NCBI GenBank assembly: GCA_050744865.1
Contig: JBOGHW010000032.1
Location: forward strand, 5,047-69,046
Reading direction: 5' to 3'
Source: Acidimicrobiales bacterium
Lineage (GTDB): Bacteria > Actinomycetota > Acidimicrobiia > Acidimicrobiales > Bog-793
Length of the DNA stretch: 64,000 bases
Numbering within the stretch: position 1 is the stretch's first letter; each line of letters begins with the position of its first letter. The notes under the pieces were generated by a model. That model saw nothing but the letters and a program-made list of their open reading frames with translations. It searched no databases and had not been told where the DNA came from. The translations under genes were made by a program, and so were the position numbers. Positions 1,654 to 26,663 of the stretch are shown piece by piece.

Positions 1654-1826
1654 ACGAGGAGCAGCGCCCCTGGCCCTGGCCCTGCCCCGCGGTCCCGGCC
1701 CTGGCCCTCGGTCTGCCTCCCGGTTGGCCGGGCAGGCGCTCAGCTTGGCCACGACACCGCCGCTACCATCGATATCGACTTCTTGCAGTGAACACCAGAC
1801 GCGGCACACCGGAGGCGAGGCGACAG

Positions 1827-4403: not shown

Positions 4404-6467
4404 ATGACGCATCCTTACAACTGCAGGCAACTTGCACTGCTCGCGCTAGCCGCGACGACGGCGCTGGTGCTCGCCGGCATTCCCTCGGCATCAGCGACGG
4501 CAGCGCCATCAGCGGCATCAGCGTCCTCCCCGGGGCGCAACGTCGGTGCGCCGGCCGTGGCGTCGGGAAGGGTCGCACTGCCTGACCCGGTCCCGAGTTG
4601 GACGGCATACAGCACCGACGACGGCCCAGCGGGCAGCAAGGTCCACGTGCCGGTCCGCCTCTACCTCAGCGGACACGCCACTGCCGAAGCCGTCTTCGCC
4701 ACCGCCGCCTCCACACCGGGAAGCGCCGCTTACGGGCACTACTTGACGCCGGCGGAGTTCGAGGCGCGCTTCGGCCCGACGGCTGCGCAGGTGAGCGCCG
4801 TACAGGGTTGGGCGAAGTCCGAAGGGCTCAGCGTTACGAGCACGACGCTTCACTACGTCGCAGTCACCGGCGCGGCCCCTGTGCTCAGCCGTGCGCTCGC
4901 CACCTCGATTCACGCCTTCAGCAACAGCGGCGGACTTACTGGATACGCGCCGGTGGACGGGGCGTCTCTTCCGGCGTCCATTGCCTCCGACGTGACCACG
5001 GTGCTGGGTTTGGACTCCTACAACTACCCGACCAATGCCGTGCCTGCGGGCACGCCTGCCACGCCCGCCCCGCTACCGACGCCAGTCCCGGCACCGGGGG
5101 CTCCGGCGGCAACCTCGGCACCGGCGCCAACCGCGGCACCGGCGACAACCGCGGTGTCTGCCCTGACGAGCTCGTATCACTGCTCCTCCTGGTGGGGCGA
5201 GAACAGTGGGTCGATCCCGAAGGCCTACGGCGAGACCAACGCCCCAGATGCGGTCTGCGGATACTCCCCCCAGCAGCTCCGGTCGGCGTACGGCGTCGCG
5301 GCCTCCGCCGGCAAGGGCGCCACCATCGCCATCGTGCTCGACGGCCATTTGGCGAGTATGGATGCGGACGCGAACCGTTTCTTTGCTGCTCATCACGTGG
5401 CCGGGTTCGCCGCCGGTCAGTTCACACAGAACTTCGGACCTGGATTTGTCGCCTCCTGCGGTTCGACGTACGCCGATCTCCCCGAGGAGCCCCTGGACGT
5501 CGCGACGGCACACATCATCGCCCCCGCCGCCAAAGTCGTCTACGTCGCAGTCAATTGCAGCAACGACACTCCGGTCTTCGAGCGCAACTTCCTCGACGCC
5601 GAGACGCGCATAGTGGACGATCACCTGGCGGACGTGGAGACTGACTCGTACAGCACTCTCGAGTCCGAGTACACCCAGGCCATGGCTGCCGCCTGGACCC
5701 AAATCCTCGAGCAAGGGGCGGTCGAGGGCATCGGGTTCAACTTCGACGCCGGCGACGGCGACGTGGCACCGGCCGTCGAGTTTCCTGCTTCGGACCCTTG
5801 GGCGACCGCCGTCGGCGGGACGGCGCTCGAAATCGGCAAGTCCGGCGCCGTCACCGGCGAGCTCGGGTGGGGGGACGACATCGCCCAGGAGAACCGGGCC
5901 GGAACGGCGTACCTGCAGGCGCCCCCCGGGGACTACGTCGAAGGCTCGACAGGCGGGCGCAGCAACCTCTTCGCCCAGCCCGCCTATCAGCACGGCGTGG
6001 TCCCGTCATCGCTCTCCACGCTGGGCGGAACTGTCGCGGCGGGCCGCGAAGTACCCGACGTGGCGGCGGACGCCAGCCCCTTCACCGGGTGGCTCATCGG
6101 TTACACACCGCCTGGCGCGCCTTACCAGCAGGTGGTCGAAGGCGGGACGAGCGGCGCGTCTCCGATCGTGGCCGCCCTGGAGGCCGATGCCATGCACGTC
6201 GCCGGTCACGCCATTGGCTTCGCCAACCCGGCACTCTACGGACTGCGCCGCAGTGCCGCGATCCGTGACGTCACCCCGAGCGCGTCACCGGCAACGGCAG
6301 TCGCCCCGACGGCCGACTGCTTCAACTTCGTCGGCGGCGTACCCGTGCAGCGCTGTCTCGTCACCCTCGGCCTCGACGGGACCCAGAAGGTGACTGCCGG
6401 CTATGACGACGTCACTGGGATCGGTGCTCCGACAACTGACTTCGTGGCGCTGCTGGCCAGAGCCTGA
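4404..6467 (+). CDS. secreted peptidase S53 (sedolisin/kumamolisin-like) with pro-domain
   Basis: Signal peptide (LALLALAATTALVLAG..ASA), pro-kumamolisin-type activation segment (YLTPAEFEARFGPTAAQVSAVQGWAKSEGLSV), Pro/Ala linker, and the catalytic Ser motif GGTSGASPIVAA. Confidence 0.85.
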   Translation: MTHPYNCRQLALLALAATTALVLAGIPSASATAAPSAASASSPGRNVGAPAVASGRVALPDPVPSWTAYSTDDGPAGSKVHVPVRLYLSGHATAEAVFATAASTPGSAAYGHYLTPAEFEARFGPTAAQVSAVQGWAKSEGLSVTSTTLHYVAVTGAAPVLSRALATSIHAFSNSGGLTGYAPVDGASLPASIASDVTTVLGLDSYNYPTNAVPAGTPATPAPLPTPVPAPGAPAATSAPAPTAAPATTAVSALTSSYHCSSWWGENSGSIPKAYGETNAPDAVCGYSPQQLRSAYGVAASAGKGATIAIVLDGHLASMDADANRFFAAHHVAGFAAGQFTQNFGPGFVASCGSTYADLPEEPLDVATAHIIAPAAKVVYVAVNCSNDTPVFERNFLDAETRIVDDHLADVETDSYSTLESEYTQAMAAAWTQILEQGAVEGIGFNFDAGDGDVAPAVEFPASDPWATAVGGTALEIGKSGAVTGELGWGDDIAQENRAGTAYLQAPPGDYVEGSTGGRSNLFAQPAYQHGVVPSSLSTLGGTVAAGREVPDVAADASPFTGWLIGYTPPGAPYQQVVEGGTSGASPIVAALEADAMHVAGHAIGFANPALYGLRRSAAIRDVTPSASPATAVAPTADCFNFVGGVPVQRCLVTLGLDGTQKVTAGYDDVTGIGAPTTDFVALLARA

Positions 6468-7862: not shown

Positions 7863-8771
7863 CTACCTCGTGACTGCCAGCTCGGGCTCGCCGGTCAGCA
7901 ATGCCAGCAGGCCGATCAGCTCGACTCGCTCGCCTGGCTGCAGGGGTGACAGGAACTCGGTCGCCGCGGCGCGCACCAGAAGCTTGGCCTCGCTCAAGAG
8001 CTTGACGCCGTCCGCAGTGACTTGGAGCGCGTAGCTGCGCCTGTCCGTCTCGCTCCGCCCACGCCTGGCACATCCGAGCTGCTCGAGCCGATCGACCAGA
8101 TCCACGGCGGCTGCACCTCCGATCGAGAGCCAGACCGCCAGCTCCTGCTGAGAACAGGGAGCTCGGCTCTCCAGGGCGGCCAGTGCCACGAACGTCCGGG
8201 TATCGAGCCCGAGCGGTCGGAATGTCACGTCCCCGATGGTGGCTACCCGGAAGTACGTGTGTGCAGTCAAGAAACCGCAGTGCTCCGCCAGTACCGGCGG
8301 TGGCGGCGGGTCGAGGTGGGGCAGGAGCAGCCGCTGCAGGTACGTCTTGAGACGCCTGTACTGAGCGGCGCTGAAACGCCCGCTGAGCTCTTCGTCGCAA
8401 GCCTGAACGGCTTTGCCGAGCGACTTGAGTCGACGTCGCCCGGCTGTCGTCACGACGAGGGCGTACGACCTGCGGTCGTTCTGGTTGCGGCGGCGCTCCA
8501 CTTCCCCGGCTTCCTCCAGCTGGTCGATGAGCTTCACCATGACGGACCGGTTGATGAGCAGGTAGTCGGCAAGCCACTGCTGCGATACCTGGCCGTAGCT
8601 GGCGAGGAGCTGCAGGATGGCCATGTCCCGGGGGTGGACGCCACCGGAAGCCTCCAGGAAGCTCTCGAGGACTCTCAGCTGGGCGCGCCGGAGAAGGTAA
8701 CCAAGCAATCCTGCGGGGTCCCTCTCGTTCGGTGCCACGACGAGCAGTGTAGCTGATGCTCCACTCACCAT
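7863..8771 (-). CDS. MarR-family regulator with two tandem winged-helix MarR units in one polypeptide
   Basis: Two MarR cores in a 302-aa ORF: ...VSQQWLADYLLINRSVMVKLIDQLEEAGEVERRRNQNDRRSYALVVTTAGRR... and ...CSQQELAVWLSIGGAAAVDLVDRLEQLGCARRGRSETDRRSYALQVTADGVK... The ATG is at 8771. The ORF-track extension to 9560 is antisense to the MFS gene. Confidence 0.8.
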   Translation of the reverse strand: MVSGASATLLVVAPNERDPAGLLGYLLRRAQLRVLESFLEASGGVHPRDMAILQLLASYGQVSQQWLADYLLINRSVMVKLIDQLEEAGEVERRRNQNDRRSYALVVTTAGRRRLKSLGKAVQACDEELSGRFSAAQYRRLKTYLQRLLLPHLDPPPPPVLAEHCGFLTAHTYFRVATIGDVTFRPLGLDTRTFVALAALESRAPCSQQELAVWLSIGGAAAVDLVDRLEQLGCARRGRSETDRRSYALQVTADGVKLLSEAKLLVRAAATEFLSPLQPGERVELIGLLALLTGEPELAVTR

Positions 8772-8784
8772 ACCATTCGGTCGG

Positions 8785-8813
8785 TTGACGATTCGCTCAC
8801 CAATCTGTACGAT
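8785..8813 (+). promoter_or_regulatory. sigma-70-type promoter giving a leaderless MFS transcript
   Basis: TTGACG (8785-8790), 17-nt spacer, TACGAT (8808-8813). The ATG at 8820 begins 7 nt after the -10 hexamer and has no Shine-Dalgarno sequence. Confidence 0.5.
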
Positions 8814-8819
8814 GTCACA

Positions 8820-10358
8820 ATGGATCGGAAGTGGTGGACCCTCGGTGCGGTTTGTGTCGGCACGTTCATGTTGCTGCTCGACCTCACCATCGTGAATGTT
8901 GCCCTGCCCCAGATCGAGCGCTCCTTCGGCGCCTCGCTCTCTGACCTGCAGTGGGTTATCGACGCATATGCGCTGACGCTGGCGGCATTGTTGCTCACGT
9001 CCGGCTCGCTGGCAGACAGGCTCGGTAGGCGGATCGTCTTCGCAGTCGGCCTCGTGATATTCACGCTTGGTTCTCTGCTCTGCGGCGTGTCGACTGACGC
9101 CTTGTTCATAATCCTGGCCCGGGCGTTCCAAGGAATAGGGGGGGCGGTCATGTTCGCCACCTCGCTCGCTCTGCTCGCCAACGCTTTCCAAGGCCGCGAG
9201 CGCGGAACTGCTTTCGCCGTCTACGGCGCTGTGACAGGTCTGGCAGTCGCCGTCGGACCTGTGCTCGGAGGCGTCATCACGAGCGGCCTGACGTGGCGCT
9301 GGATCTTCTTTGTGAACATCCCGATAGGAGCCGTTGCCCTGGCGATCACGCTTCTCAAGGTCGACGAGAGCAAGGTGCAACACCCCGGGAGAATGGACTG
9401 GGTCGGCTTCGCGACGTTCTCGCTTGCCCTGGCTGCACTCGTCTACGGCTTGATCGAGTCCGGCCGCGACGGCTGGGGCTCGAACTCCGTGATAGGTCCG
9501 CTCGTGTTCGCGGGAGTGCTGTTCGTCATCTTCTACCTGGCAGAGGTCCGCCAGAGCCACCCGATGCTCGACTTGTCGCTACTTCGGCTGCCCACCTTCA
9601 CGGGCGGGCTGGTGGCTGCGTTCGGTATGAACGCGGGGCTCTTCGCCCTGTTTACCTACCTGATCATCTACATGCAGAACGTGCTGGGTCTCTCCGCCGT
9701 TGCCACCGGCGTGAGGTTCTTGCTGCTCACTGGTGCCATGTTCGCTACTGCCGGCTTCGCCGGGCGCTTGACGAACAGCATGCCGATCAGATGGCTGATA
9801 GCACCTGGCTTCGTGCTCGTCGGGGTAGGGCTCCTGCTGATGGGCGGCATCACGCCGGCATCGAGCTGGACCCACCTGATCGCCGGGCTCGTCATCTCCG
9901 GCGTCGGGGCAGGCTTCATCAACGTGCCGCTCGCCTCGACTGCTGTCGGCGTAGTCGAGCCCGCTCGCGCCGGAATGGCATCGGGCATCAACTCGACGTT
10001 TCGCCAGGTCGGCACAGCCACCGGGATAGCGGCTCTCGGCTCGATCTTCGCCAGCACGGTTCGCTCGCAAGTGGCAAGCCACCTCGACGCCACGTCGCTG
10101 CGGCCACTGGCTCACAGCATTGCCAATTCCGTCGCGGCCGGAGGTGGGGCACCTGCCGGCACGCCGGCGGCAGGTGCCAGCGTCGTTCGCCCGATTGCCC
10201 TGTCCGGCTTCGTGACAGGCTTGAACGACATCCTGGAAATCGGCGCCGTCCTTTCCTTCCTGGCGGCCGTGGCCTGCGTCTTCCTTATCCGCCAGAAGGA
10301 CTTCCACGCCGCAGCCTCCGGCCAATCCTCGGTCCGCGAGCCGGCTGTCCTAGCCTGA
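8820..10358 (+). CDS. MFS transporter, DHA2 (EmrB/QacA) 14-TMS drug:H+ antiporter type
   Basis: LDLTIVNVALPQI, GSLADRLGRRIVF, 512 aa with about 14 hydrophobic segments. It is divergent from the MarR gene. Confidence 0.9.
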   Translation: MDRKWWTLGAVCVGTFMLLLDLTIVNVALPQIERSFGASLSDLQWVIDAYALTLAALLLTSGSLADRLGRRIVFAVGLVIFTLGSLLCGVSTDALFIILARAFQGIGGAVMFATSLALLANAFQGRERGTAFAVYGAVTGLAVAVGPVLGGVITSGLTWRWIFFVNIPIGAVALAITLLKVDESKVQHPGRMDWVGFATFSLALAALVYGLIESGRDGWGSNSVIGPLVFAGVLFVIFYLAEVRQSHPMLDLSLLRLPTFTGGLVAAFGMNAGLFALFTYLIIYMQNVLGLSAVATGVRFLLLTGAMFATAGFAGRLTNSMPIRWLIAPGFVLVGVGLLLMGGITPASSWTHLIAGLVISGVGAGFINVPLASTAVGVVEPARAGMASGINSTFRQVGTATGIAALGSIFASTVRSQVASHLDATSLRPLAHSIANSVAAGGGAPAGTPAAGASVVRPIALSGFVTGLNDILEIGAVLSFLAAVACVFLIRQKDFHAAASGQSSVREPAVLA

Positions 10359-10689: not shown

Positions 10690-10837
10690 GCCGTGCCTGT
10701 GGTCGTCGCCGTGCTGGCGGTTACGGCGCGTTGTGCGGAGGTCGTCGCCGTGCTGGCGGTTACGGCGCGTTGTGGAGGTCGTCGCCGTGCTGGCGGTTAC
10801 GGCGTCGTTGTGCCCGTGGTCGTCGCCGTGCTGGCGG
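10690..10837 (-). repeat. ~37-41-bp tandem array (about 4 copies) spanning the UPF0182 stop codon
   Basis: gtcgtcgccgtgctggcggttacggcg... starts at 10702, 10741, 10778 and 10819. The TAA stop (10797-10799, minus strand) lies in copy 3; copies 1-2 are downstream of the gene and copy 4 is coding (Thr-rich tail). Confidence 0.9.
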
Positions 10838-13784
10838 TGCTGGTGGTGGTTGGCGTGGTGGTGGTTGTGGTGGTGGTTGTGGTTGTGGTCGACGTGGTGC
10901 CCGACCCAGATGACGGTGACGAGCCTTTCTTGCCGAGAGTAGCCAGCTGGGACTCAGCTTCGGAAAGCAACTGCTGGACCTTCTGCGAGTCCGACCCATA
11001 GGCGGCCCAGTCGCCGGACTTGGCCGCTGAGACAGCTTGACCCTCAAGCGTGTTGGCCTCGTCGATCTCGGCCGTGATCTCCGCCGGGATGCTGGTTGGT
11101 CCTGTTGAGCCGACGTGCCCGGCGGGAGACCCGAACAGGTTGGCGAGCACCCCGCTGCTCCCGGTGAAGGTAGCTTCGACGACGACCTTGGACCCGTAGA
11201 CCGCTGCTACGTCGAACAGCTGTGGGAGCGGGTTGCTCGACGAGGTGGAGAAGAACGCCTTCACGTACAGCAACGAGTTGTCGATCGGCACGAGCAGTGT
11301 CGGGCCGCTGACAACTTTTGACCCGTGTTGGTCGAGCTGCGTGATCTTCTGCGACAGGGTCGGGGTGGCGATGATCCGGGCGTTCGCAAGGGCCGGGCCG
11401 AGCACGACGGAATTGCCCTGGGGCACCGCGAACGACGTCAATTGCCCGTATGTGGACGCGCTGCAGCTGGCGACCATGAAGTCGGTGAGGTTCTGTGCGG
11501 AGGCTTGCGAAGACTGAGGCACCAGAGGTAAGTAGACGTCGAAGGTTGGAGTCGCCGACGCTGTCGTCCCTCCTGGGTCAGTCGTTCCCGGCAGCGCCAG
11601 CAGCTGGTAGGTCGGCTGAACGTAAGGGGCCGAGTTGCCGGCCGACGACTGCGCCACTGCCCAGGCAGCCTCGTTGTTGTAGAACTCCTGGGCGTCCTTG
11701 GCGCTGATGTGGTACTTCCCGTACATGGTCGCCTCGACCGTGAGGAGATTTTGCGGGTAGCGGAGGTGCTGCTGCAGCACCTCCGGCATGTCGCTGAGCG
11801 GGTGGAACTTCCCCGGGAAGATTCGCTCCCAGGCCTGCAGGATCGGATCGCTCGGATCCACGTCGTAGAACGTCACCTGTCCGGTGTAGGCGTCGACGAC
11901 TGCCTTGACGGAGTTCCGCACGTAGTTGTAGCTGCCGTTGAGCCCGCTGTTCGAGGGCAGCGCCTTGGTGTCAACGGGCTGCGAATACGGGTAGTTGCTG
12001 GAAGTCGTGTACGCGTCGACCACCCAGTCGATATGGCCGGACACGACCACCGGGTACGGATTCGAATCGACCTTGAGAAACGGCGCCGCCTTCTGCACAA
12101 GAGTCCTGACGTCCTGGTTGTACATAATCCGCGAACTCGGGGTCACGAGCTTTGAGACGAGCAAGTTGAAGTCGTGGAAGTTGAGGGCAAAGGCGGCCCG
12201 CTGCCAGAAGCCGCCGACTCGGATCCCGCCACTCCCCTCGTAGCGGCTGTTGACTACCGTGTTGCCAGCCTGGTAGTCGAATTCGGCCTGCGAGGTGTCG
12301 ACCACCACATAACCGCTCTCGCCTACGCCGTAGTAAACGTCCGGCTCTGTCAAGCTCGGCGCGCCTGAAGACGAAGTTGCCGGGACGCTCCCCATCACGA
12401 ACGGCGTCTGTGACGCCTCAGAATTGGCGGGAGCCATGACAACTCCGTAGCCGTGCGTGAAGACGAGGTGGCTGTTGACCCAGGTGTTACGGTTCAGGGT
12501 GCCGGATGATACTTCGCGCACGCCGACCACTACTGGTGTCACCTGGGTCGTGCTGTTCTCCTCCAGTGGGTATCTGTCAAGTGCGACTCCGTTGACTGAG
12601 TAGTAACCCTCTTTCTTTTCCTCGTTCTCGAACAGTGTCCCCGCCACCGACGGGTCCCACAGGTCGATGTCATCGAGAGACTGGTTGTACACCTCATTTA
12701 CTACGCCTTGTGTGACATTGCTGTCGGCATCGAACGGCACCGTCTTCACGGCGTTCAGGTTGTATGCGGCTTGCGTAGCCGAGACGTTACGCGCCAGATA
12801 GGTCGTCTCGAGCGTGCTCTGGGCAGGCGTGACACGCAGCCACTGGACCGCCGCCGGGAAGATCACTCCTACCCCGATGGCGACGAAGGCCCAAATGCCG
12901 GCACCAACCGCCGGGAGTAGCCACCCGCGGGCATAGACGTTGTAGACGAACAAGGCAAAGGAGGCCAGGGCGACCACCACGAGCAGTTCCAGGGCTGGGA
13001 GTCGCACATGGATCGCCGTGTAGCCGGCACCTTGCCCACCGGTGATAATGCCGTTCGGCGTGAGGTCTAGCTCGAAGCGATCCACGTAGAAGTAAGCCGC
13101 CGCCCTGAGGAGTGCCATCGCGGCAAGGATGACCGACAAGTGAGACGTGGCTCGAGGGTCGATACGCGGTGACGGCCCGGAGAAGCGGACTCCCCCGTTG
13201 AGGTAGTACGCCGCGACGCATACGATGAACAGCACGATCAGCGCAACTTGGGTCCAGTCGACCAGAAACGAAAGAAATGGCAGCTTGAACACATAGAAGC
13301 CAACATCACGATGAAATTCCGGATCCGTCACTCCGAAGCTCCCACCATGCAGGAAGAGGAGCCAGTTCTGCCACTGACCGGACGCACCCGAGCCGACGGC
13401 CAGCGCGACGAAGAAAGAGATCACTGTCCGCAGGGCAAACTTGTGCCTGCCGACTATCGTCTGGTAGCGGCGGATGAGCTCCTGCTCTGGAGCCATGAAC
13501 AAAGCTCGCCTGGCGACTCGGTCGACAATCAGCAAGCTGATCCAGCAAGCCAGGAAGAAAATCCCTGAGAAGAACAGGTCGAGCTCGGCCCTCGTCAGCG
13601 TCATGGATCGCCAGACGTCGTCGCTGCCTACCGAGCGGAACCAGAGGTAGTTCGTGAACAGCGACGCCACCTGCTCCACGGCGATCACGGCGATGATGAC
13701 GAGAATGACAATGGCGATGAGGACAACTTGGTAACGCCTGATCAAGCGACCGGTCGGGAGAGCGGCGTCGCTGGGAACCCTCAT
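10797..13784 (-). CDS. UPF0182 family large membrane protein (Rv3193c/Rv0064-like) with poly-Thr C-terminal tail
   Basis: YLWFRSVG, LFLHGGSFGVTDPEFHRDVGFYVFKLPF, WVNSHLVFTHGYGVVMAPAN, VDAYTTSSNYPYSQP, YVRNSVKAVVDAYTGQVTFY, HLRYPQNL. The ATG is at 13784, 10 nt after the upstream stop. The tail is ...SGTTSTTTTTTTTTTTTPTTTSTASTATTTGTTTP. Confidence 0.9.
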   Translation of the reverse strand: MRVPSDAALPTGRLIRRYQVVLIAIVILVIIAVIAVEQVASLFTNYLWFRSVGSDDVWRSMTLTRAELDLFFSGIFFLACWISLLIVDRVARRALFMAPEQELIRRYQTIVGRHKFALRTVISFFVALAVGSGASGQWQNWLLFLHGGSFGVTDPEFHRDVGFYVFKLPFLSFLVDWTQVALIVLFIVCVAAYYLNGGVRFSGPSPRIDPRATSHLSVILAAMALLRAAAYFYVDRFELDLTPNGIITGGQGAGYTAIHVRLPALELLVVVALASFALFVYNVYARGWLLPAVGAGIWAFVAIGVGVIFPAAVQWLRVTPAQSTLETTYLARNVSATQAAYNLNAVKTVPFDADSNVTQGVVNEVYNQSLDDIDLWDPSVAGTLFENEEKKEGYYSVNGVALDRYPLEENSTTQVTPVVVGVREVSSGTLNRNTWVNSHLVFTHGYGVVMAPANSEASQTPFVMGSVPATSSSGAPSLTEPDVYYGVGESGYVVVDTSQAEFDYQAGNTVVNSRYEGSGGIRVGGFWQRAAFALNFHDFNLLVSKLVTPSSRIMYNQDVRTLVQKAAPFLKVDSNPYPVVVSGHIDWVVDAYTTSSNYPYSQPVDTKALPSNSGLNGSYNYVRNSVKAVVDAYTGQVTFYDVDPSDPILQAWERIFPGKFHPLSDMPEVLQQHLRYPQNLLTVEATMYGKYHISAKDAQEFYNNEAAWAVAQSSAGNSAPYVQPTYQLLALPGTTDPGGTTASATPTFDVYLPLVPQSSQASAQNLTDFMVASCSASTYGQLTSFAVPQGNSVVLGPALANARIIATPTLSQKITQLDQHGSKVVSGPTLLVPIDNSLLYVKAFFSTSSSNPLPQLFDVAAVYGSKVVVEATFTGSSGVLANLFGSPAGHVGSTGPTSIPAEITAEIDEANTLEGQAVSAAKSGDWAAYGSDSQKVQQLLSEAESQLATLGKKGSSPSSGSGTTSTTTTTTTTTTTTPTTTSTASTATTTGTTTP

Positions 13785-13794
13785 CGGAGAAGCG

Positions 13795-15954
13795 TCACTC
13801 GCTTCGCACGAGCAGGCAACGGCAGCCAGGGTGAACCGGTGGGTGCACCTGCCCGGTCGGGAACTCGGCACCGGCCAGCGTGTCGCCGGCAAGACTGTTG
13901 TCGTCGCAATCCGGGCAAGGTTGGCCGTTGTCGTCCACCAGCCAGATGACCGATTGGCCCTCGCCCGCCGATATTGCGCCTGCGGAGAAGGCACGCGTGG
14001 CGTAGTCGCCGGCACTGCCTTCTATGCGAGAGCCCTTCCACTCCCGGTAGGCGGCGCCGGCGGCATCCTGGGCACCGTCGCCCACCTCGGCGAGACCACC
14101 GAGCGACTCGGTCAACCTGTGGCGGAGCAGCCCGACAAGGTCGTCCGCGAGCTCGTCGGCCAAGCTGCGGCCGGTCTCGTTGGCACGGGCGTGGACGGCG
14201 GCGTCGTCGAGGATGCCCGCTGGCTCGTTGCCAAGCCACGGCCGGCCGGCCAGCCAGGCCTCACGGAGGACTGAGGCAGCAGCTCTGGCATAGCGCTCTC
14301 GCTGAGCGTTTCTCGGCAGCAGCTCATCGAGCTGAGGTGCCCCGGAGGAATGACGGATAGCGTCGAGAAGCTCGTTCTGGTCGTCCTGGAGCGCTCGCTT
14401 GAGCGCCCGCGAGAGCCTCGTCATGATAGGCACCAAAGCCGCATCTCGCTTGATGAATGCCGCTTTGGTGCCATCGGACCTGGCTCCGGCGGGATCGGCG
14501 ACGGCTCCGGCAGGATCGATCAGCGCCGAGTCGGCTGCTTCGAGATCCGCCTGGGCAGAAGGCGCCTCTTGGTCGTCCTCGCTGCCCGACCGGATGCGAG
14601 CAAAGATCTCGTCCACGGCGCTGCGGGTCTCGCCCTGGCCAGCCAAATCGTCACCCTGCCCTGGGGCGCCGTGTTCAGCACCCGCAGGCTTGCCTGCGTC
14701 GTCCGGCCCGATGACAACGCCGTCGTCGGTGTGAGCTGCATCGTCGGTGTGAGCTGCATCGTCGGCCGACACACGCGCAAGGGCGGATTCGGGCTCATCG
14801 CCTACCGCCGCGCCAGCCTCAGCACCGCTGTCCTCGTCCACGGCGCCAATCCCCGGGGCGCCGTCGCCAGCCTCGGGGACGACGGCACTCTCGCCGCCGC
14901 CACTCTCGCTAGCGGTACTCTCGTCGGCACTGTCGCCACCGGCACTCTCGCCACCGGCACTCTCGCCACCGGCACTCTCCACGGCACTCTCGCCACCGGC
15001 ACTCTCCACGGCGCTCTCGCCACCGGCACTCGCGCCGGCACTCCCGCCGCCACTCTCGCTGCCGGCAGGCGTTGGCAGGTCCGCCTCTAGGAGTGCCTCG
15101 ACTTCTTCGTCACTTCCCTCGCTCTCGTCGTCAAAATCGTCGAAGGCGTCGGCGGCATGCTCGGCCCGCTGGCCGGCTTCGGCAGCCGCCACCCTCGCCT
15201 CGTGCTCGGCGCCGGCCAGACCGCCGCGGACGGCCTCCACAGCTTCGGCAACCGTCTCGACGACCTCGACAAGGTGGTCCCGGCCCGAGCGCAGCTGTTC
15301 GAGCTGGACATAGAGGGCTCTCCGCTGCTCGGCGAGGTCTGTCAGCGTGGCCGTCCGGCGATCCCGAGCCTGGCTGATCATCTGCCTGGCTCGTCGTTGG
15401 GCCGCCCCCACCAACGCAGTCGCCGAAGCTTGAGCGGTCGAAGTCACCTGCTCGGCCTCGGTCTCGGCGGCTTCCCTCACTTCGGCTGCCTTGGCTGAGG
15501 CGGCGGCTTCGATTGCCACGACCTCGGCCTGAGCCGCCTCTCGTACACGAACGCTCTCCTCTTCGGCAGCCGCAGCTCGCTCGGATGCCTGCGCTTCGGC
15601 ACCGGCGATCAGCTCCGCCGCTGTCCCTTCGGCCTTGGCCAACACGTCCCGCGCGGCATCGTGAGCCGCCTGAAGGATGCGCGCCGTCTCGGTTCCGACG
15701 GCTTGCATGAGCGTCTGCTCGTCGAGCACAGGCGGTTCCGCCGCCCTCCGCTCGACGTCGGCGAGGAGCCGCCGCAGCTGCGCCTCCTTGTCACTGAAGG
15801 CGCGCACCTCCTCGGCGAGCATCTCGAGGTAGCGCCGCACTGCCTCGGGGTCGGCCCCTTTTCGCACGGTTGGGAACGTCCGGCGCGGGATCTCCTCAGG
15901 GTTGAGGGCGGCGTTGGAGGATATGGACATAACGCGTGGCTCGTCGGGGGCCAT
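13795..15954 (-). CDS. DivIVA-domain / coiled-coil / acidic-repeat protein with C-terminal MuF (SPP1 gp7)-like domain
   Basis: N-terminus RRTFPTVRKGADPEAVRRYLEMLAEEV (DivIVA signature). Long Ala/Glu-rich helical region. Acidic repeats (GGESAVESA.., DDAAHTDDAAHT). C-terminus ...WLVDDNGQPCPDCDDNSLAG...FPTGQVHPPVHPGCRCLLV. An alternative ATG is at 15930. Confidence 0.75.
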   Translation of the reverse strand: MAPDEPRVMSISSNAALNPEEIPRRTFPTVRKGADPEAVRRYLEMLAEEVRAFSDKEAQLRRLLADVERRAAEPPVLDEQTLMQAVGTETARILQAAHDAARDVLAKAEGTAAELIAGAEAQASERAAAAEEESVRVREAAQAEVVAIEAAASAKAAEVREAAETEAEQVTSTAQASATALVGAAQRRARQMISQARDRRTATLTDLAEQRRALYVQLEQLRSGRDHLVEVVETVAEAVEAVRGGLAGAEHEARVAAAEAGQRAEHAADAFDDFDDESEGSDEEVEALLEADLPTPAGSESGGGSAGASAGGESAVESAGGESAVESAGGESAGGESAGGDSADESTASESGGGESAVVPEAGDGAPGIGAVDEDSGAEAGAAVGDEPESALARVSADDAAHTDDAAHTDDGVVIGPDDAGKPAGAEHGAPGQGDDLAGQGETRSAVDEIFARIRSGSEDDQEAPSAQADLEAADSALIDPAGAVADPAGARSDGTKAAFIKRDAALVPIMTRLSRALKRALQDDQNELLDAIRHSSGAPQLDELLPRNAQRERYARAAASVLREAWLAGRPWLGNEPAGILDDAAVHARANETGRSLADELADDLVGLLRHRLTESLGGLAEVGDGAQDAAGAAYREWKGSRIEGSAGDYATRAFSAGAISAGEGQSVIWLVDDNGQPCPDCDDNSLAGDTLAGAEFPTGQVHPPVHPGCRCLLVRSE
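14725..14760 (-). repeat. 18-bp x2 in-frame tandem duplication
   Basis: gtcggtgtgagctgcatc at 14725-14742 and 14743-14760; encodes DDAAHT DDAAHT. Confidence 0.9.
14881..15060 (-). repeat. in-frame short-unit tandem repeats (15- and 27-bp units) encoding Gly/Glu/Ser/Ala acidic repeats
   Basis: Repeated ggcactctcgccacc and ggcactctccacggcactctcgccacc units; translation is GGESAVESAGGESAVESAGGESAGGESAGGDSA. Confidence 0.85.
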
Positions 15955-15983: not shown

Positions 15984-17234
15984 TTATGAAGCGCCCGGCT
16001 TGACGATCTTTCCGCCGTGACTCTCGAGCACCTTGAGCGCCTCGGTGATGCTCGACACGGAATAGATCTTCAGCGACGGGCCGGCGTACTTCTCGGCCTC
16101 GGCGTAGTTGCCGGGTGGGACGAGGAAGATCTTGGCTCCGGCTGCCCGCACCGCGAAGGTCTTCTGTTCGATGCCTCCGATCTCGCCCACCTGCCCGTTG
16201 ATGGACATCGTGCCGGTGCAGGCCACCTTCAGGCCGCCTGTCAAGTCGGCGGTATCGAGCTTCTGCATCAACCCGAGAGTGAAGGCGAGGCCCGCCGAAG
16301 GCCCGATGATGCCCTCGCTGCTGAGGTCGACCGCGAATGGGAGCTTGCTGATGTCGTACGACTGCTCCACGTTCAACAACCCGACGCAGGACGCCGGAGA
16401 GACCTTCTGCCCCTTTGCCGGTACGTAGAACTGCCCGTTCTTGTCGCCGAGCAGCGGCAGCGATGTCTTGACATCCGTCGGGACACAATCGGGTGTGGCG
16501 TTGGCGCCGGTGCCGAGGATGCGCCAGGTGCCGAGCTTGAAGGTTGCTTGCCTGGAGCCGCCCTTGGCGTACGGCCGGTACGTCAAGGTGACGCCGGAAC
16601 CGGGGGCACGCCCGGCGAGCGCGTCCGTCAAGGATGTCAACGTCGCCACCGGCTTGGAATCGACGGCGATTATGACGTCACCGACGCTGAGCGCCGTGGC
16701 CGCGGGCGAACCGGGGCCGATCTCGTAGACGAGGTCGCCGTTCTCCGACACAGTGACGCTGTAGCCGAGCTCTCGCAGCGCCACGACTTGTGCCGCCTGC
16801 TGGGCGTCCGCCATGTCCAAGACACCTTCGATGTAGGCCTGGGCGTTGGTCTCGGGCCCCTGCAGAGCCTGCGAAGAGATGATCGTCGCATGGTCGTCCA
16901 GCTTGAAGTAGAGGAAGTCGATGGCACGAAGCGGTGTCTCCTCGACGTCAACGAGGTTGACGCTGCCGGAGTGGTTGTGATCGAGGGAGCCGGGAACTTT
17001 GATCAGGAGCCCGACGTTCTGGGCGCTGCCGGGCGTAAGGGCGTAGTAAGGCAGGGACACGAACGACGAAACGACGGCCAGGATGAGCACGAGGGCCACC
17101 ACCCCCAGCACGACTCGACCCTTGGTAAACCGCCGCCGGCGGGGAGCGGGTATGGGCACGCCCTCCCCCGCTGAGGCACCCGCTGTGTCGTCGGGGCCGG
17201 GCGCGGTACCTAGGCTGTCGGCATCGATGCTCAC
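15984..17234 (-). CDS. membrane-anchored PDZ + Lon-like (S16) serine protease (Rv3194c-like)
   Basis: N-terminal TM (VVLGVVALVLILAVV), PDZ (GSPAATALSVGDVIIAVDSKPV), Lon catalytic Ser motif IIGPSAGLAFTLGL and Lys region GGIEQKTFAVRAAGAKIFLVP. GTG start at 17234. Confidence 0.85.
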   Translation of the reverse strand: MSIDADSLGTAPGPDDTAGASAGEGVPIPAPRRRRFTKGRVVLGVVALVLILAVVSSFVSLPYYALTPGSAQNVGLLIKVPGSLDHNHSGSVNLVDVEETPLRAIDFLYFKLDDHATIISSQALQGPETNAQAYIEGVLDMADAQQAAQVVALRELGYSVTVSENGDLVYEIGPGSPAATALSVGDVIIAVDSKPVATLTSLTDALAGRAPGSGVTLTYRPYAKGGSRQATFKLGTWRILGTGANATPDCVPTDVKTSLPLLGDKNGQFYVPAKGQKVSPASCVGLLNVEQSYDISKLPFAVDLSSEGIIGPSAGLAFTLGLMQKLDTADLTGGLKVACTGTMSINGQVGEIGGIEQKTFAVRAAGAKIFLVPPGNYAEAEKYAGPSLKIYSVSSITEALKVLESHGGKIVKPGAS

Positions 17235-17246
17235 GACGGATCAGCC

Positions 17247-17849
17247 TTGCATGCGGCAGGGTACGAGAGCGCGCGCAGGCGCCGTGCAGCCGCCTTGGCC
17301 GGCCACGATGGCGAGCTGGCTGTTGCCGCCGGGTACTTCGAGGACGCAGACGACACGGTTCGGGCCGTTGCCCTTGGCGCCCTGGTCCGTATGGGTAGCG
17401 CGACCCCTCTGGTGGCGGCCCGGGCACTGGCCGATCCGTCCCCGATCGTCCGCCGGCGTGCCGCTGAGCTGGCCGCGTCCCTACAAGGCGCCGACTTCAA
17501 GCAATTGCTTCAGGACGAGGACGCGAGCGTGGTCGAGGCTGCCTGCTTTGCTCTCGGCGAAGTGTGCGACACGGCGGCCGTCGCCGCGCTCGCCACGGTC
17601 GCGACAGAGCACCCCGATGCACTCTGCAGGGAGTCGGCCGTCGCCGCCCTCGGCTCGGTCGGCGACCCTGCCGGGCTTCCAGCCATCCTGGCGGCGCTGA
17701 AGGACAAGCCGGCGGTCCGGCGCCGCGCTGTCATTGCGTTGGCACCGTTCGCAGGTGACGAAGTCTCCGCGGCCCTGCGGAATGCCCTGAACGACCGCGA
17801 CTGGCAGGTGCGCCAGGCGGCCGAGGACCTCCTCTCGCCCGAGAGGTGA
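17247..17849 (+). CDS. HEAT-repeat protein (PBS-lyase HEAT-like repeats)
   Basis: Repeated D..VR..A..ALG units: DDTVRAVALGALV, SPIVRRRAAELA, DASVVEAACFALGEV, DALCRESAVAALGSVG, KPAVRRRAVIALA, DWQVRQAAEDLL. The start (TTG 17247) is uncertain. Confidence 0.65.
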   Translation: MHAAGYESARRRRAAALAGHDGELAVAAGYFEDADDTVRAVALGALVRMGSATPLVAARALADPSPIVRRRAAELAASLQGADFKQLLQDEDASVVEAACFALGEVCDTAAVAALATVATEHPDALCRESAVAALGSVGDPAGLPAILAALKDKPAVRRRAVIALAPFAGDEVSAALRNALNDRDWQVRQAAEDLLSPER

Positions 17850-17973: not shown

Positions 17974-18960
17974 TCAGGAGCCAGCGAGTCGCCTGTGCTT
18001 GCGCCGCATCGACACTACGGCGCCGCGCACGGTGACGACCTCCGGGTCGTGAACGAGGTGAATGGGAATGCCGGCAGCCGTGGCCATCCGTCTTGCAAAG
18101 CCGTGCAGCAGCGATCCCCCACCTGCGAGGTACAGGCCCATGCTCAACAAGTCGTTGGCCAGATCGGGAGGCGACTGGATGATGCACTCCACGGTGGCGG
18201 CGACGATCGACTCGACATGGGGGAAGAGGGCTCCCGCCACCTCCGAAGTAGACAGCGTGACGGTGCGTGCGCAACCGTTGCCGAGGTCGCGTCCTGCCAC
18301 CTCGACCTTCTTCTCCTCGTCCGGCCAGGCCGTGCCGATCACCATCTTGACCTGCTCGGCCAGCTCCGCCGGCACCGACAAGTCGAACGAAGACCTCAGC
18401 AGCGCTCGGATGGCGTCGTCGAAGTCCCCTCCTCCGACCTCGATCGAGGCCTCGGTCACCACACCGCCGAGCGCCATGACGGCCATGTCGCTCGTGCCCG
18501 CCCCGACGTCCACCACCATCGAAGCCAGGGGCTGGTCGATCCTCAGCCGGCTCCCGAGGGCGGCGCAAACCGCCTGATCAAGAAACGACACGTCCCGCGC
18601 CCCCGCCCGCTTGAACGACCGCTCGAGGGCGCGGCGTTGCACGCTGGTTGCTGAGGCCGGAACGCAGCAGGTGACATCGGGCTTATAGATCCTATGGTGC
18701 CGGGCCCGCGACAGGATCTCCCTCGCCACCTGGTGGGTGAGCTCCAGATCTGTCAGCTGGCCGTGGCGGACAGGTCGCACCAGGCCGATCTCACCGGCAG
18801 CACAACCAGTCAAGCCTTGCGCCTCCCTGCCGAAGGCGACGAGGCGGCCGGTGGTGATGTCTATGGCTGCCAGAGTGGGCTCGTCGACGATCGTCGAACC
18901 GCCCGAGTCGACGACAAGTGTTCGGGCAGTCCCGAGATCGACGGCCAGACCCGGGCTCAT
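17974..18960 (-). CDS. mreB: MreB-like actin-family protein (orphan, no mreCD)
   Basis: Collinear with MreB over the full length: VDLGTARTLVV, LVRPVRHGQLTD, CCVPASATSVQRRALERSFKRAGARDVSFLDQAVCAALG, MVVDVGAGTSDMAV, IEVGGGDFDDAI, LYLAGGGSLLHGF. Confidence 0.85.
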   Translation of the reverse strand: MSPGLAVDLGTARTLVVDSGGSTIVDEPTLAAIDITTGRLVAFGREAQGLTGCAAGEIGLVRPVRHGQLTDLELTHQVAREILSRARHHRIYKPDVTCCVPASATSVQRRALERSFKRAGARDVSFLDQAVCAALGSRLRIDQPLASMVVDVGAGTSDMAVMALGGVVTEASIEVGGGDFDDAIRALLRSSFDLSVPAELAEQVKMVIGTAWPDEEKKVEVAGRDLGNGCARTVTLSTSEVAGALFPHVESIVAATVECIIQSPPDLANDLLSMGLYLAGGGSLLHGFARRMATAAGIPIHLVHDPEVVTVRGAVVSMRRKHRRLAGS

Positions 18961-24479: not shown

Positions 24480-24499
24480 GGCCTGACTCGGGTCAGGCC
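24480..24499 (-). terminator. hairpin overlapping the vWA-gene stop codon (candidate terminator)
   Basis: GGCCTGAC-tcgg-GTCAGGCC, a perfect 8-bp stem. A second 14-bp GC palindrome (GCCGGCGCGCCGGC) lies at about 24448-24461. Confidence 0.3.
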
Positions 24500-26544
24500 G
24501 AGCGGAGGCCGCGCCGCGATCGCCGGTGCTCGATGAAGTCGACGAGCACGTAGTCCCCGAGGGTCTCGGGAGTCGTGAAGAATGCCCGGCCGCCGTTCAG
24601 CTGACTGATCTTCTCGACGAAGTCCCTCAGGTGGCCAGCCGCATCGAGGGCGAACGTGTTCAGCCTGATCCCTTCGCGAGTCAGCCTGATCACCTCGGCC
24701 AGGGTCGCGTCGACCGTCGCCCGCACCGGCGGGTAGTTGAAGAACACCTCGCCGCCGTCGGTCAGGTGAGCGGTCGGCTCACCGTCGGTGATCATGATGA
24801 TCTGCTTGGTCCCGGCGCGACTCGCGAGCAGCCGCCGGGCCAGCATGAAGGCATGCTGCATGTTGGTCCCGTAGACGAAGTCCCAAGCGACCTCGGGCAG
24901 CTGCGCCACCTTGATCTCCCTGGCAGTCTCAGAGAAACCGACAATCCCCAAATAGTCCCGGGGGAACTGGCTCGAGATCAGAGCCTGCATGGCAATGGCC
25001 ACCTTCTTGGCTGCAAGGAAGTTGTCCCTCATGGGCATCGAGAGCGACAAGTCGAGCAGCAGCACAGTCGAGCAGGACGTCGAGTGCTCGGTCTGCTCGA
25101 TCTCGAAGTCGCCCGGCTCCAAACGCACCGGGAAGCGCACGCCGGGCACAGCAGCACGGACGGCGGAGCCGGCCTGGGATCCGGCCTGGCGAGCGATGGC
25201 GTTGCGGACCGTCCGTTCGACGTGGAGGTTGAAGGGATCGCCGAACTCGTAAGCCTTGGTGTGGTCGGACCGCTCGTGCCCGGTGCCGGCAAGCGCTGTC
25301 TCGTGGCCACCGAGGCGGTCCTTGGTGAGGCGGGCGAACAGCTCCCGGAGGGCCTTCTTTCCGATGTGGCGCAGGCCGCGTGGCGTCAACTCGAGCCTGC
25401 CCTCGACGTTCTCGACCAGTCCCGCCTCCTCCAGTCGTCTCGACAGCCGGGCCAGCTCTGCCAGCGAGGAGGCCGCCTCGGCACCCAGCAACTGGCGGGC
25501 CCGATCGATGTCGACCTCGGCCAGGGCGCCCGGCTGCGGCGAGCCGGACAGCAGCTGCTCCAGCTGGTCCATGTCGGCCAAGCGCCCGAACAAGTCGGAG
25601 GCTTCGGCAAGCCCGGGCGCCTCGGCGCCGGAGAACGACACCCGACGATCCCAGCTCGCATCGGGAAACATCGACCTGAGGTTCCCGGCCAACCGGCTCA
25701 CCTGCCACTGCAGATCCATGTCGCCGAGGAGCTCGTCCATGAGTCCTTGCAGCTGCTGGCGCTGGGCGGGCGTCATCGAGGCCAGCATCGCCGAGGTCGC
25801 CGCCATGCGATCTGCAAGCTGGGAAAGCAGCTCTTCGAGGTTCGCCGGGTCGCCGGGGAACAGGTCGCCGAACTCGGACATGAACGACTCGAAGCTCGGG
25901 TCGAGCTCCAGGCCCGCCTCATGCTGCTCGATCATCCGGTTGAGAGCGTCGATCCCCTGGCGTAAATGGTCCCGTTCGCCGGCACCCATAGAGGACATGG
26001 CGCCGGCCGCCTGGTCCAGGTACGACTGCACGATCTCGCCGCGAAGGCGCTCCATGAGCTCCTCGAAGTGCTCACGGGCTTGAGTCGACACGAACTCGTA
26101 GCCCGACAGCGCCCGGACGCGACCGGCGAGGTCGTCGAGCAGGAGGCTGAGCTCGGAGCGGCGATCAGCGACGGCGGCGCTCGTCACCTCCTGGCGCCGC
26201 TGGTCGCCCGACTCGCCGGCTTCCGCCTCGAGCTCGTCCAGCGCCGCCCTTTCCGTGGACACCACTTCAGCCAGCTCTGCGGCGATCTCCGAGTACACAC
26301 CGCCCAGGTCGTACTGTTCCCGGGCGGCCTGGCGCTCGTCACGCAGGCGCTCCAGCAGCTCGCGAAGGCCGGAGACGCGATTGCCCTGCCTGTCGGAGAA
26401 TCCCTGCTGCAACAGGCGCCTGAGTGCGGCGTTGACGTCTCCGTGGTACATGAGGTCGTCGTTGATCTCGCCGAGGATCGCGTCGGCATCGAGGTCGAAA
26501 CCCTGCTGCGACCCGTCCCAGCGCGAATACCTCGCATGCGTCAC
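24493..26544 (-). CDS. large vWA-domain protein (long helical N-terminal region + C-terminal von Willebrand A domain)
   Basis: C-terminal vWA with MIDAS DxSxS (VLLLDLSLSMPM), ...IVGFSETAREI..., ...IIMITDGEPTAH... The probable start is GTG 26544 (VTHARYSRWDG...). Confidence 0.8.
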   Translation of the reverse strand: MTHARYSRWDGSQQGFDLDADAILGEINDDLMYHGDVNAALRRLLQQGFSDRQGNRVSGLRELLERLRDERQAAREQYDLGGVYSEIAAELAEVVSTERAALDELEAEAGESGDQRRQEVTSAAVADRRSELSLLLDDLAGRVRALSGYEFVSTQAREHFEELMERLRGEIVQSYLDQAAGAMSSMGAGERDHLRQGIDALNRMIEQHEAGLELDPSFESFMSEFGDLFPGDPANLEELLSQLADRMAATSAMLASMTPAQRQQLQGLMDELLGDMDLQWQVSRLAGNLRSMFPDASWDRRVSFSGAEAPGLAEASDLFGRLADMDQLEQLLSGSPQPGALAEVDIDRARQLLGAEAASSLAELARLSRRLEEAGLVENVEGRLELTPRGLRHIGKKALRELFARLTKDRLGGHETALAGTGHERSDHTKAYEFGDPFNLHVERTVRNAIARQAGSQAGSAVRAAVPGVRFPVRLEPGDFEIEQTEHSTSCSTVLLLDLSLSMPMRDNFLAAKKVAIAMQALISSQFPRDYLGIVGFSETAREIKVAQLPEVAWDFVYGTNMQHAFMLARRLLASRAGTKQIIMITDGEPTAHLTDGGEVFFNYPPVRATVDATLAEVIRLTREGIRLNTFALDAAGHLRDFVEKISQLNGGRAFFTTPETLGDYVLVDFIEHRRSRRGLRSA

Positions 26545-26663
26545 CCTTGCGAGTGTAGGGACACCCGCCGCAGTAGGCAGTTCGACCGGGGCGTCTGCGC
26601 CAACTCGAGCCCGCCCGCCACTGTGGTCGCAAGAAGGCAACCGCTCACTAGGCTCGGGTACCC

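Follow-up and report, generated by a model that had tools for sequence, protein, structure and literature searches.

What can a domain related to phage head proteins be doing at the end of a bacterial DivIVA protein? This question is raised by a gene within a 64,000-nucleotide stretch of DNA from an Acidimicrobiales bacterium (GTDB lineage Bacteria; Actinomycetota; Acidimicrobiia; Acidimicrobiales; Bog-793), namely positions 5,047 to 69,046 of the forward strand of contig JBOGHW010000032.1 in assembly GCA_050744865.1. We refer to this whole stretch as the window, and all positions given below are counted within it. The gene encodes a protein of 719 amino acids (aa) in which a DivIVA domain and a long helix are connected through an acidic linker to a C-terminal domain similar to the MuF/SPP1 gp7 proteins of phages. 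We are highly confident of the DivIVA::MuF architecture and of the MuF homology, taken together. DivIVA scaffolds with lineage-specific partner-binding ends are a known kind of protein; what is new is the MuF-derived end. As to function, we give somewhat less than an even chance to the whole explanation favored here, in which the protein acts as a cytoplasmic, membrane-associated scaffold or adaptor and the captured MuF domain docks a UPF0182/PDZ-Lon or FtsH partner.

Architecture of the protein and homology of its C-terminal domain

The gene, on the minus strand, forms one uninterrupted open reading frame (ORF) with an ATG start and a TGA stop, confirming what an earlier reading of the sequence alone (hereafter the original prediction) had claimed for 13795–15954, and its start codon is unambiguous because an in-frame TAG sits 9 nt 5' of the ATG. 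The protein contains neither a transmembrane segment nor a signal peptide, and the window holds no second DivIVA or MuF paralogue. Related loci were represented by the best 80 of at least 455 stretches encoding a relative, all from GTDB species representatives, and two sets of relatives served for profile and conservation work (n = 37 and n = 61, the latter full-length). The parts of the gene are listed here, with the predicted local distance difference test (pLDDT) and predicted template modeling score (pTM) of AlphaFold2 (AF2) models and with repeats as called by Tandem Repeats Finder (TRF).

13795–15954, minus strand: DivIVA, acidic linker and MuF-like gene, 719 aa (ORF list; single-ORF form in 68 of 80 related loci)
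15730–15906, minus strand: DivIVA N-terminal domain, aa 17–75, LNPEEIPRRTFPTVRKGADPEAVRRYL... (PF05103; match to 7o39_A)
15163–15720, minus strand: Ala/Glu-rich long helix, aa 79–264, presumed coiled-coil oligomerization rod (AF2 pLDDT 85–92)
14494–15162, minus strand: acidic disordered linker, aa 265–487, variable in length (pLDDT below 50)
14880–15067, minus strand: tandem repeats GGESA/VESAGGESA in the linker (TRF periods 15/27/42/57, 78–85% matches)
14723–14765, minus strand: second short tandem repeat, DDAAHT in 2.4 copies (TRF period 18, 100% matches)
14587–14631, minus strand: short helix VDEIFARIRS in the linker, aa 442–456 (conservation; pLDDT about 60)
13798–14493, minus strand: MuF-like domain, aa 488–719, four long helices and a small beta/knuckle end (AF2 pLDDT 90.3, pTM 0.87)
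13816–13917, minus strand: knuckle C680-x2-C683 ... H708-x-G-C711-R-C713, candidate Zn site (conservation)

Four parts can be distinguished in the protein, which are the DivIVA N-terminal domain with its long helix, the acidic disordered linker with short tandem repeats, the VDEIFARIRS helix and the C-terminal domain of ~230 aa. The full-length AF2 model, based on the 61 relatives, places the N-terminal domain at aa 19–72, disorder at aa 259–441 and 457–487, an isolated short helix at aa 442–456 and a confident C-terminal domain at aa 488–719; the Ala/Glu-rich helix that had been read behind the DivIVA signature is modeled as a single helix (aa 79–264). Conservation along the protein peaks at four spots, namely the DivIVA domain, the second half of the rod, a short island in the linker and the MuF-like domain.

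The original prediction had assigned the C-terminus to the MuF family (PF04233). This assignment holds at the level of the family, although the protein itself stays under the cutoffs: PF04233 reaches 15.2 bits (E 0.038; gathering cutoff 29.6 bits) over profile positions 60–111 only, and TIGR01641 reaches 15.2 of 39.65 bits. Among the relatives, PF04233 is matched at E<0.01 by 8 of 37 (best 5.2e-6) and by 12 of 61 (best 8.4e-6), and Pfam overlooks the MuF-like domain in most family members. The best PHROG hit, phrog_2662, a family annotated as portal, matches with E 4.8e-7 over 204 residues and aligns to family positions 493–708 of 717; viral portal::MuF fusions show what this C-terminal region of phrog_2662 is. 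All nine viral ORFs that were checked exceed the PF04233 cutoff (31–59 bits), three of them being portal::MuF fusions. When the cellular profile was aligned by hhalign to 47 such viral domains, the match reached 99.6% (E 2.5e-24, 166 columns), for a viral set retrieved by motif, that is, from 73 IMG/VR loci collected by scanning for the motifs of the cellular family. Among the predicted structures in BFVD, Foldseek matched 56 at E<1e-3 (query TM of 0.75 at most, best E 2.8e-6), and almost every one is annotated as a head morphogenesis, minor capsid, portal::MuF or MuF-toxin protein of phages.

Several searches with the same material returned nothing of use. Foldseek against the PDB with the domain and full-length models gave no significant match (the best were helical bundles of PA28 and FadR, E of at least 0.07), PDB sequence searches with the C-terminal domain, as single sequence or as profile, gave only uS19 and helical bundles at the noise level (E>0.03), and 50,697 GenBank phage genomes searched by tblastn with the domain contained no match. 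When hhalign compared the family profile with SPP1 gp7 and Mu F as single sequences, no significant match resulted, and CRC alone aligned. Judged by profile alignments and predicted folds, the C-terminal domain is a divergent homologue of MuF, established at the family level despite the missed cutoffs. Since both the model cutoff and the context of a phage head module are lacking, we class it as a divergent MuF-like domain that has been domesticated, and not as a MuF protein. It is under strong purifying selection.

The domain shares with phage MuF/SPP1 gp7 (PF04233/TIGR01641) the helical bundle and C-terminal knuckle fold, and its W-x-(n)-C-P-x-C...PP-x-H-P-G-C-R-C end is common to a large viral MuF subgroup. 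It differs from them in that the fusion is chromosomal and stands without portal, terminase or capsid genes, in that the phage 'A-T-E' ('ATE...A') has become 'A-G-D', and in the first-helix motif LKRALQDDQN, which is specific to the cellular family. The portal::MuF fusions (phrog_2662; IMG/VR loci L091, L110 and L150) are similar in carrying MuF at the C-terminus of a larger oligomeric protein; there, however, the N-terminal part is the portal itself, and here it is a DivIVA scaffold.

The C-terminal sequence and its Cys/His motif read as they had been quoted. A word-indexed search with the C-terminal domain found 190 homologues, 120 of them listed; C680, C683, H708, C711 and C713 are invariant in these 120 (CxxC...HxxCxC in all of them) as well as in the alignments of 37 and 61 sequences. 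The knuckle is therefore conserved as had been expected of it, and it may bind zinc, for which it is a candidate site. The original prediction had also taken D-x3-C-x2-C...CRC as the conserved end of MuF domains in general, and here only a part of the claim survives: the pattern describes a subgroup and not the whole family, given that SPP1 gp7 and Mu F have CRC alone. In SPP1 gene 7 (L156, 3802–4728) and Mu F (L157, 3074–4393), D-x-R-T-R-x-x-H ('RTRxxH') replaces CxxC, and no His precedes G-C-R-C. Because these prototypes are devoid of CxxC and the His, we regard the Cys/His pattern as a trait of a MuF subgroup; the CxxC and His ligands of the cellular family are also present in many metagenomic viral MuF proteins, and MuF proteins appear to divide into putative metal-binding and non-binding subgroups.

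Besides the Cys/His cluster, K519, R520, D524, N527, R534, R637, R643, W671, D685 and T700 are invariant. Such an unusually large set of charged and polar residues could point to a different role, in which the C-terminal domain is an enzyme or a sensor of a small ligand or metal and retains a catalytic activity of MuF that is as yet undiscovered; the biochemical function of MuF is given as unknown in PMC5576092. Yet no enzyme fold in the PDB is similar (best E 0.07, helical bundles), the modeled helical bundle with its small knuckle offers no obvious catalytic scaffold, and the conserved T-E of phage MuF is replaced by G-D. We consider an enzyme or sensor quite improbable.

At the other end of the protein, the proposed DivIVA domain was borne out by PF05103, which matches aa 18–131 with 32.0 bits (cutoff 28 bits, E 1.4e-7) and is found in 58 of the 61 full-length relatives at E<0.01 (best 7.5e-19). 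The DivIVA N-terminal domain of known structure, 7o39_A, aligns with aa 17–66 (E 0.0014), and F27, G33, V39 and L43 are at least 90% conserved in the 61 relatives. The DivI1A domain model TIGR03544 reaches 14.8 of 22 bits, and the equivalog cutoffs of Wag31 (NF050102, 13.6 vs 260 bits) and GpsB (NF010725, 13.3 vs 91 bits) stay out of reach. By the Pfam criterion, the protein is thus assigned to the DivIVA-domain family and is no Wag31 or GpsB orthologue. The alignment to 7o39_A places V30-R31-K32 at the loop equivalent to F17/R18 of B. subtilis DivIVA, with Arg at the F17 position, so that the hydrophobic residue is not kept in place. The second half of the rod carries a near-invariant Q217..QL..GR..L block. 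When the N-terminal 270 aa were used as a query for homologues, low-complexity candidates dominated and one match was obtained. Like DivIVA, Wag31 and GpsB, the protein is cytoplasmic, and a long coiled-coil helix comes after its L-x-P-x-[DE]-I...F...[RK]-G-x-D...V..[FY]L signature. Unlike them, it continues with an acidic tether of 135–433 aa and a folded, MuF-like C-terminus of 230 aa, it is encoded in a PDZ-Lon/UPF0182 operon and not in the dcw cluster, and its F17 equivalent is the Arg just mentioned.

The linker had been described as ~200 aa of acidic tandem repeats. Its acidity is evident (pI 4.05 for aa 263–499, with 59 D+E and 8 K+R), whereas true tandem repeats span only ~75 aa of it according to TRF. 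In relatives the linker measures 135–433 aa and its sequence is not conserved, while its net charge is always negative (-7 to -68). Within it, the short helix follows the motif V-x-x-[LIM]-F-A-[RK]-[IL]-[RK]-A, a basic or amphipathic helix kept in at least 45 of the 61 relatives, with V447, F451, A452 and A456 at least 90% conserved. From its pattern of conservation, this helix looks like a candidate short linear interaction motif. An autoinhibitory contact found no support, as the helix is not docked on the MuF-like domain in the monomer AF2 model.

The charge of the protein also bears on the idea that it anchors DNA. DivIVA proteins are known in several bacteria as tethers of chromosome origins, and a MuF-derived end that had retained gp7-type DNA binding could let the DivIVA scaffold hold the chromosome at the membrane or pole, as in DivIVA-RacA or Wag31-ParB. 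SPP1 gp7 is described as DNA-binding and as targeted by the portal to the procapsid in work cited within the reference list of PMC5576092. The MuF-like domain, however, is acidic (pI 4.99; family median 4.99, range 4.52–6.25) and for this reason disfavors an anchor of DNA; moreover, it is attached to the negatively charged linker, and the conserved neighborhood holds no par, smc or origin-related genes. An anchor for DNA or the nucleoid is therefore very improbable in our view.

Distribution and genomic context

A profile search with HMMER across 1.84 billion cluster representatives found 5055 proteins at E<=1e-3, of which 1141 reach E<=1e-30. Proteins of 600–890 aa with the domain at their extreme C-terminus are numerous among the 150 best matches. 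The taxon-labeled ones among the 190 matches of the word-indexed search are mostly metagenome-assembled genomes of Acidimicrobiales, and those with a name are nearly all called 'hypothetical protein'. The 80 loci are labeled as Acidimicrobiales/Acidimicrobiaceae or more broadly (Actinomycetota, Actinomycetes and one 'uncultured bacterium') and include the cultured Aciditerrimonas ferrireducens. The fusion gene is present in every Acidimicrobiales genome sampled and is the standard form of the gene there. A survey of its architecture had been proposed along with the original prediction, and it revealed that the fusion is not a one-off: one uninterrupted ORF covers DivIVA and the MuF-like domain in 68 of the 80 loci, with 560–1130 aa from stop to stop (median 704).

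Of the remaining 12 loci, four are cut by contig ends, and in eight the open frames overlap within the repetitive linker. Stretches of N occur in four of these eight, and the tails and heads of the frames are mostly rich in Arg and Pro. Naturally split genes, which would have amounted to Rosetta-stone evidence, were considered for the eight loci and rejected, as overlapping frames, N runs and Arg/Pro-rich translation in the wrong frame indicate assembly gaps or probable frame errors. In one locus (L001, 8916–11812), UPF0182 is called as three genes and DivIVA::MuF as two, with apparent frameshift errors in what is suspected to be a long-read assembly. Such apparent errors account for the many 'hypothetical' family fragments of 200–420 aa in protein databases. 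In public records the protein is named 'DivIVA domain-containing protein' or 'hypothetical protein', and its exact sequence is absent from a collection of 15 billion proteins. The original prediction knew of no described DivIVA::MuF architecture, and our full-text literature searches likewise yielded no paper that combines DivIVA with MuF in this sense, treats DivIVA in Acidimicrobiia or describes PF04233 in a cellular role.

The genes next to the fusion gene are the following.

10797–13784, minus strand: UPF0182 membrane protein, downstream (PF03699, 755 bits; ATG 10 nt after the TGA of the fusion gene)
15984–17234, minus strand: membrane-anchored protease with PDZ and Lon_C (S16) domains, upstream (PDZ_2 4.2e-11, Lon_C 1.1e-8; stop 29 nt before the ATG of the fusion gene)
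17247–17849, plus strand: HEAT-repeat gene, divergent, between MreB and the PDZ-Lon operon (HEAT_2)
17974–18960, minus strand: MreB, further upstream (PF06723, 288 bits)

No terminator-like site was found within the PDZ-Lon, DivIVA::MuF and UPF0182 cluster. UPF0182 lies directly downstream in all 80 loci, with estimated gaps of 9–196 nt. PDZ-Lon is found directly upstream on the same strand in 63 and further upstream in eight, and is absent in two; the contigs of the other seven are truncated. Seven of the eight displaced loci have an extra 2.7–4.1 kb; in the one that was checked (L020), a HAMP-PAS sensor gene lies within the interval. Such a membrane HAMP-PAS sensor (L020, 1561–4020) or a full histidine kinase (L036, 283–2853) is encoded between or beside PDZ-Lon and DivIVA::MuF in a minority of the related genomes; sensor and kinase genes fit an envelope-stress theme for the cluster. 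The HEAT-repeat gene has a counterpart at the equivalent position of another locus (L002).

We compared this arrangement with the actinobacterial UPF0182/PDZ-Lon locus of the Rv3193c-Rv3194c type. The neighborhood of UPF0182, PDZ-Lon and Zincin_2 is also found here, and we take the locus to be equivalent to Rv3193c-Rv3195 of M. tuberculosis. To our knowledge, UPF0182 is universal in Actinobacteria, including M. tuberculosis, and we know of no gene between UPF0182 and PDZ-Lon in mycobacteria. The difference is that DivIVA::MuF is inserted between the two in the present lineage, an insertion that is lineage-specific as far as sampled.

The presence of MreB, which lies upstream on the same strand in 59 of the 80 loci, brings up another role. 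DivIVA proteins organize the growth zones of Actinobacteria, and the protein might be the polar or septal determinant of this lineage, similar to Wag31/DivIVA, with a MuF end that recruits cell-wall or cytoskeletal factors such as MreB. The DivIVA domain, which exceeds its Pfam cutoff, is in favor of such an organizer of growth or division. The context, however, is not of the dcw type, the Wag31 equivalog score is far too low, and the divergent HEAT-repeat gene separates MreB from the operon; the invariant immediate partner is UPF0182 instead. An organizer of this kind seems unlikely to us.

The neighborhood also decides whether the gene is a relic of phage or of conflict. The neighbors are cellular (MFS, MarR, UPF0182, PDZ-Lon, HEAT-repeat, MreB, MoaE, HtrA-like protease and Zincin_2), none of them is a phage gene, and the GC content is even across the region around the fusion gene, in agreement with the earlier statement that no other phage gene is nearby. 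MuF domains are otherwise borne by phages, and the frame changes between the two halves of the protein in eight of the 80 loci might be taken as the trace of an artificial joining, so that a remnant of a prophage, a polymorphic toxin of the MuF type, a decoy against phages and an artefact joining two genes all had to be weighed. The housekeeping synteny is nevertheless kept across 80 species; no toxin domain was recognized by Pfam, PHROG or PADLOC and no immunity gene lies nearby; the tblastn search of phage genomes remained empty; and the eight frame changes fall in the repetitive linker as described above. PADLOC returned nothing for either the fusion protein or UPF0182, and a role in defense or as a decoy was rejected, the locus being syntenic rather than island-like. 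MuF polymorphic toxins (PMC5576092) and polyvalent-protein MuF-effector fusions (Iyer et al., 2017, PMC5512222) are similar in using MuF as a carrier or docking module. In these, however, MuF is N-terminal, a toxin or enzyme follows at the C-terminus, the gene belongs to a (pro)phage head module and an immunity gene often accompanies it; none of this applies here, and the C-terminal position of MuF in the fusion protein is the reverse of the order in the toxins. These explanations are effectively refuted.

A possible docking role and its origin

The explanation that we favor, that of a scaffold or adaptor with a docking end, starts from the behavior established for the DivIVA family, because of which oligomerization and membrane association are expected. 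By analogy, the DivIVA end and rod would oligomerize and attach to the membrane from inside the cell, probably where it is curved, as at poles or septa. From this scaffold, the acidic tether would give the C-terminal domain a reach of tens of nanometers, and the MuF-derived end may hold or position a partner in the cell, most likely a cytoplasmic face of the co-encoded UPF0182/PDZ-Lon machinery or of FtsH. According to two accounts (PMC5576092, PMC5512222), the only MuF activity known from experiment is the docking of SPP1 gp7 onto the ring-shaped portal oligomer, in addition to DNA binding. For UPF0182, chemical genomics has recently pointed to a link with the quality control of membrane proteins by FtsH/YccA, and its predicted assembly is a tetrameric dome (bioRxiv 10.1101/2025.11.14.688347). 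Among the possible functions, docking to envelope quality-control machinery is best supported because the linkage to UPF0182 is invariant. That the MuF-derived domain is a docking module or adaptor linking the DivIVA scaffold to this machinery or to FtsH is possible, and we would wager slightly against it.

Regarding origin, a single early capture of a phage MuF gene in the lineage may have been followed by its fusion to a DivIVA paralogue. We speculate that one capture took place at or near the root of Acidimicrobiales and that MuF, as the cargo-binding end of the DivIVA scaffold, now attaches to a cellular machine shaped like a ring or dome (UPF0182 as a tetramer, FtsH as a hexamer, or both), thereby fixing membrane-protein quality control to particular sites of the cell; this combined scenario is tentative and rather doubtful.

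Several points weigh against the scaffold and docking explanation. Membrane binding is not assured because the F17 equivalent is Arg, and the TIGR03544, Wag31 and GpsB models score far under their cutoffs. UPF0182 and PDZ-Lon are mostly extracytoplasmic, and since their bulk lies there, little cytoplasmic surface is left for docking. The invariant polar residues of the C-terminal domain could equally be compatible with catalysis or ligand binding, and the gene neighborhood is circumstantial as an argument for a physical link.

If true, docking by the fusion protein would give MuF its first function in cells and offer an entry point to two enigmatic families, MuF and UPF0182. Jamet et al. (2017, PMC5576092) counted MuF in roughly one third of the tailed phages. 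As it is among the commonest phage head domains, a conserved cellular copy that is free of the virion would be a simpler system for finding its binding targets. The fusion gene may also reveal a cytoplasmic partner of the UPF0182/FtsH pathway or a layer of its spatial organization. It would represent a clean case in which core cell biology has taken up a domain from a structural protein of phages, hidden by current annotation. Acidimicrobiales are poorly tractable, and functional statements on the fusion protein are all inferred.

Further observations in the window

The C-terminus of UPF0182 (10797–10950) is a long Thr/Ser-rich tail (...GTTSTTTTTTTTTTTTPTTTSTASTATTTGTTTP), which is possibly an O-glycosylated or cell-wall-spanning extension. 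Further away from the fusion gene, a bacterial RCC1-repeat (beta-propeller) protein is encoded at 1788–3050 on the plus strand, with PF25390 and PF00415 well above their cutoffs. At 4404–6467, the same strand encodes a protein of 687 aa that has a pro-kumamolisin activation domain and is probably a secreted protease of the sedolisin type. A gene for a VWA-domain protein (24493–26679, minus strand) adjoins one for a MoxR/AAA_5-type ATPase (26664–28079, plus strand), a possible MoxR-VWA pair. A listed ORF of 565 aa at 7863–9560 on the minus strand, with two MarR-type stretches, overlaps the well-supported ORF of an MFS transporter at 8820–10358 on the plus strand; this listed ORF is probably far longer than the true MarR gene.

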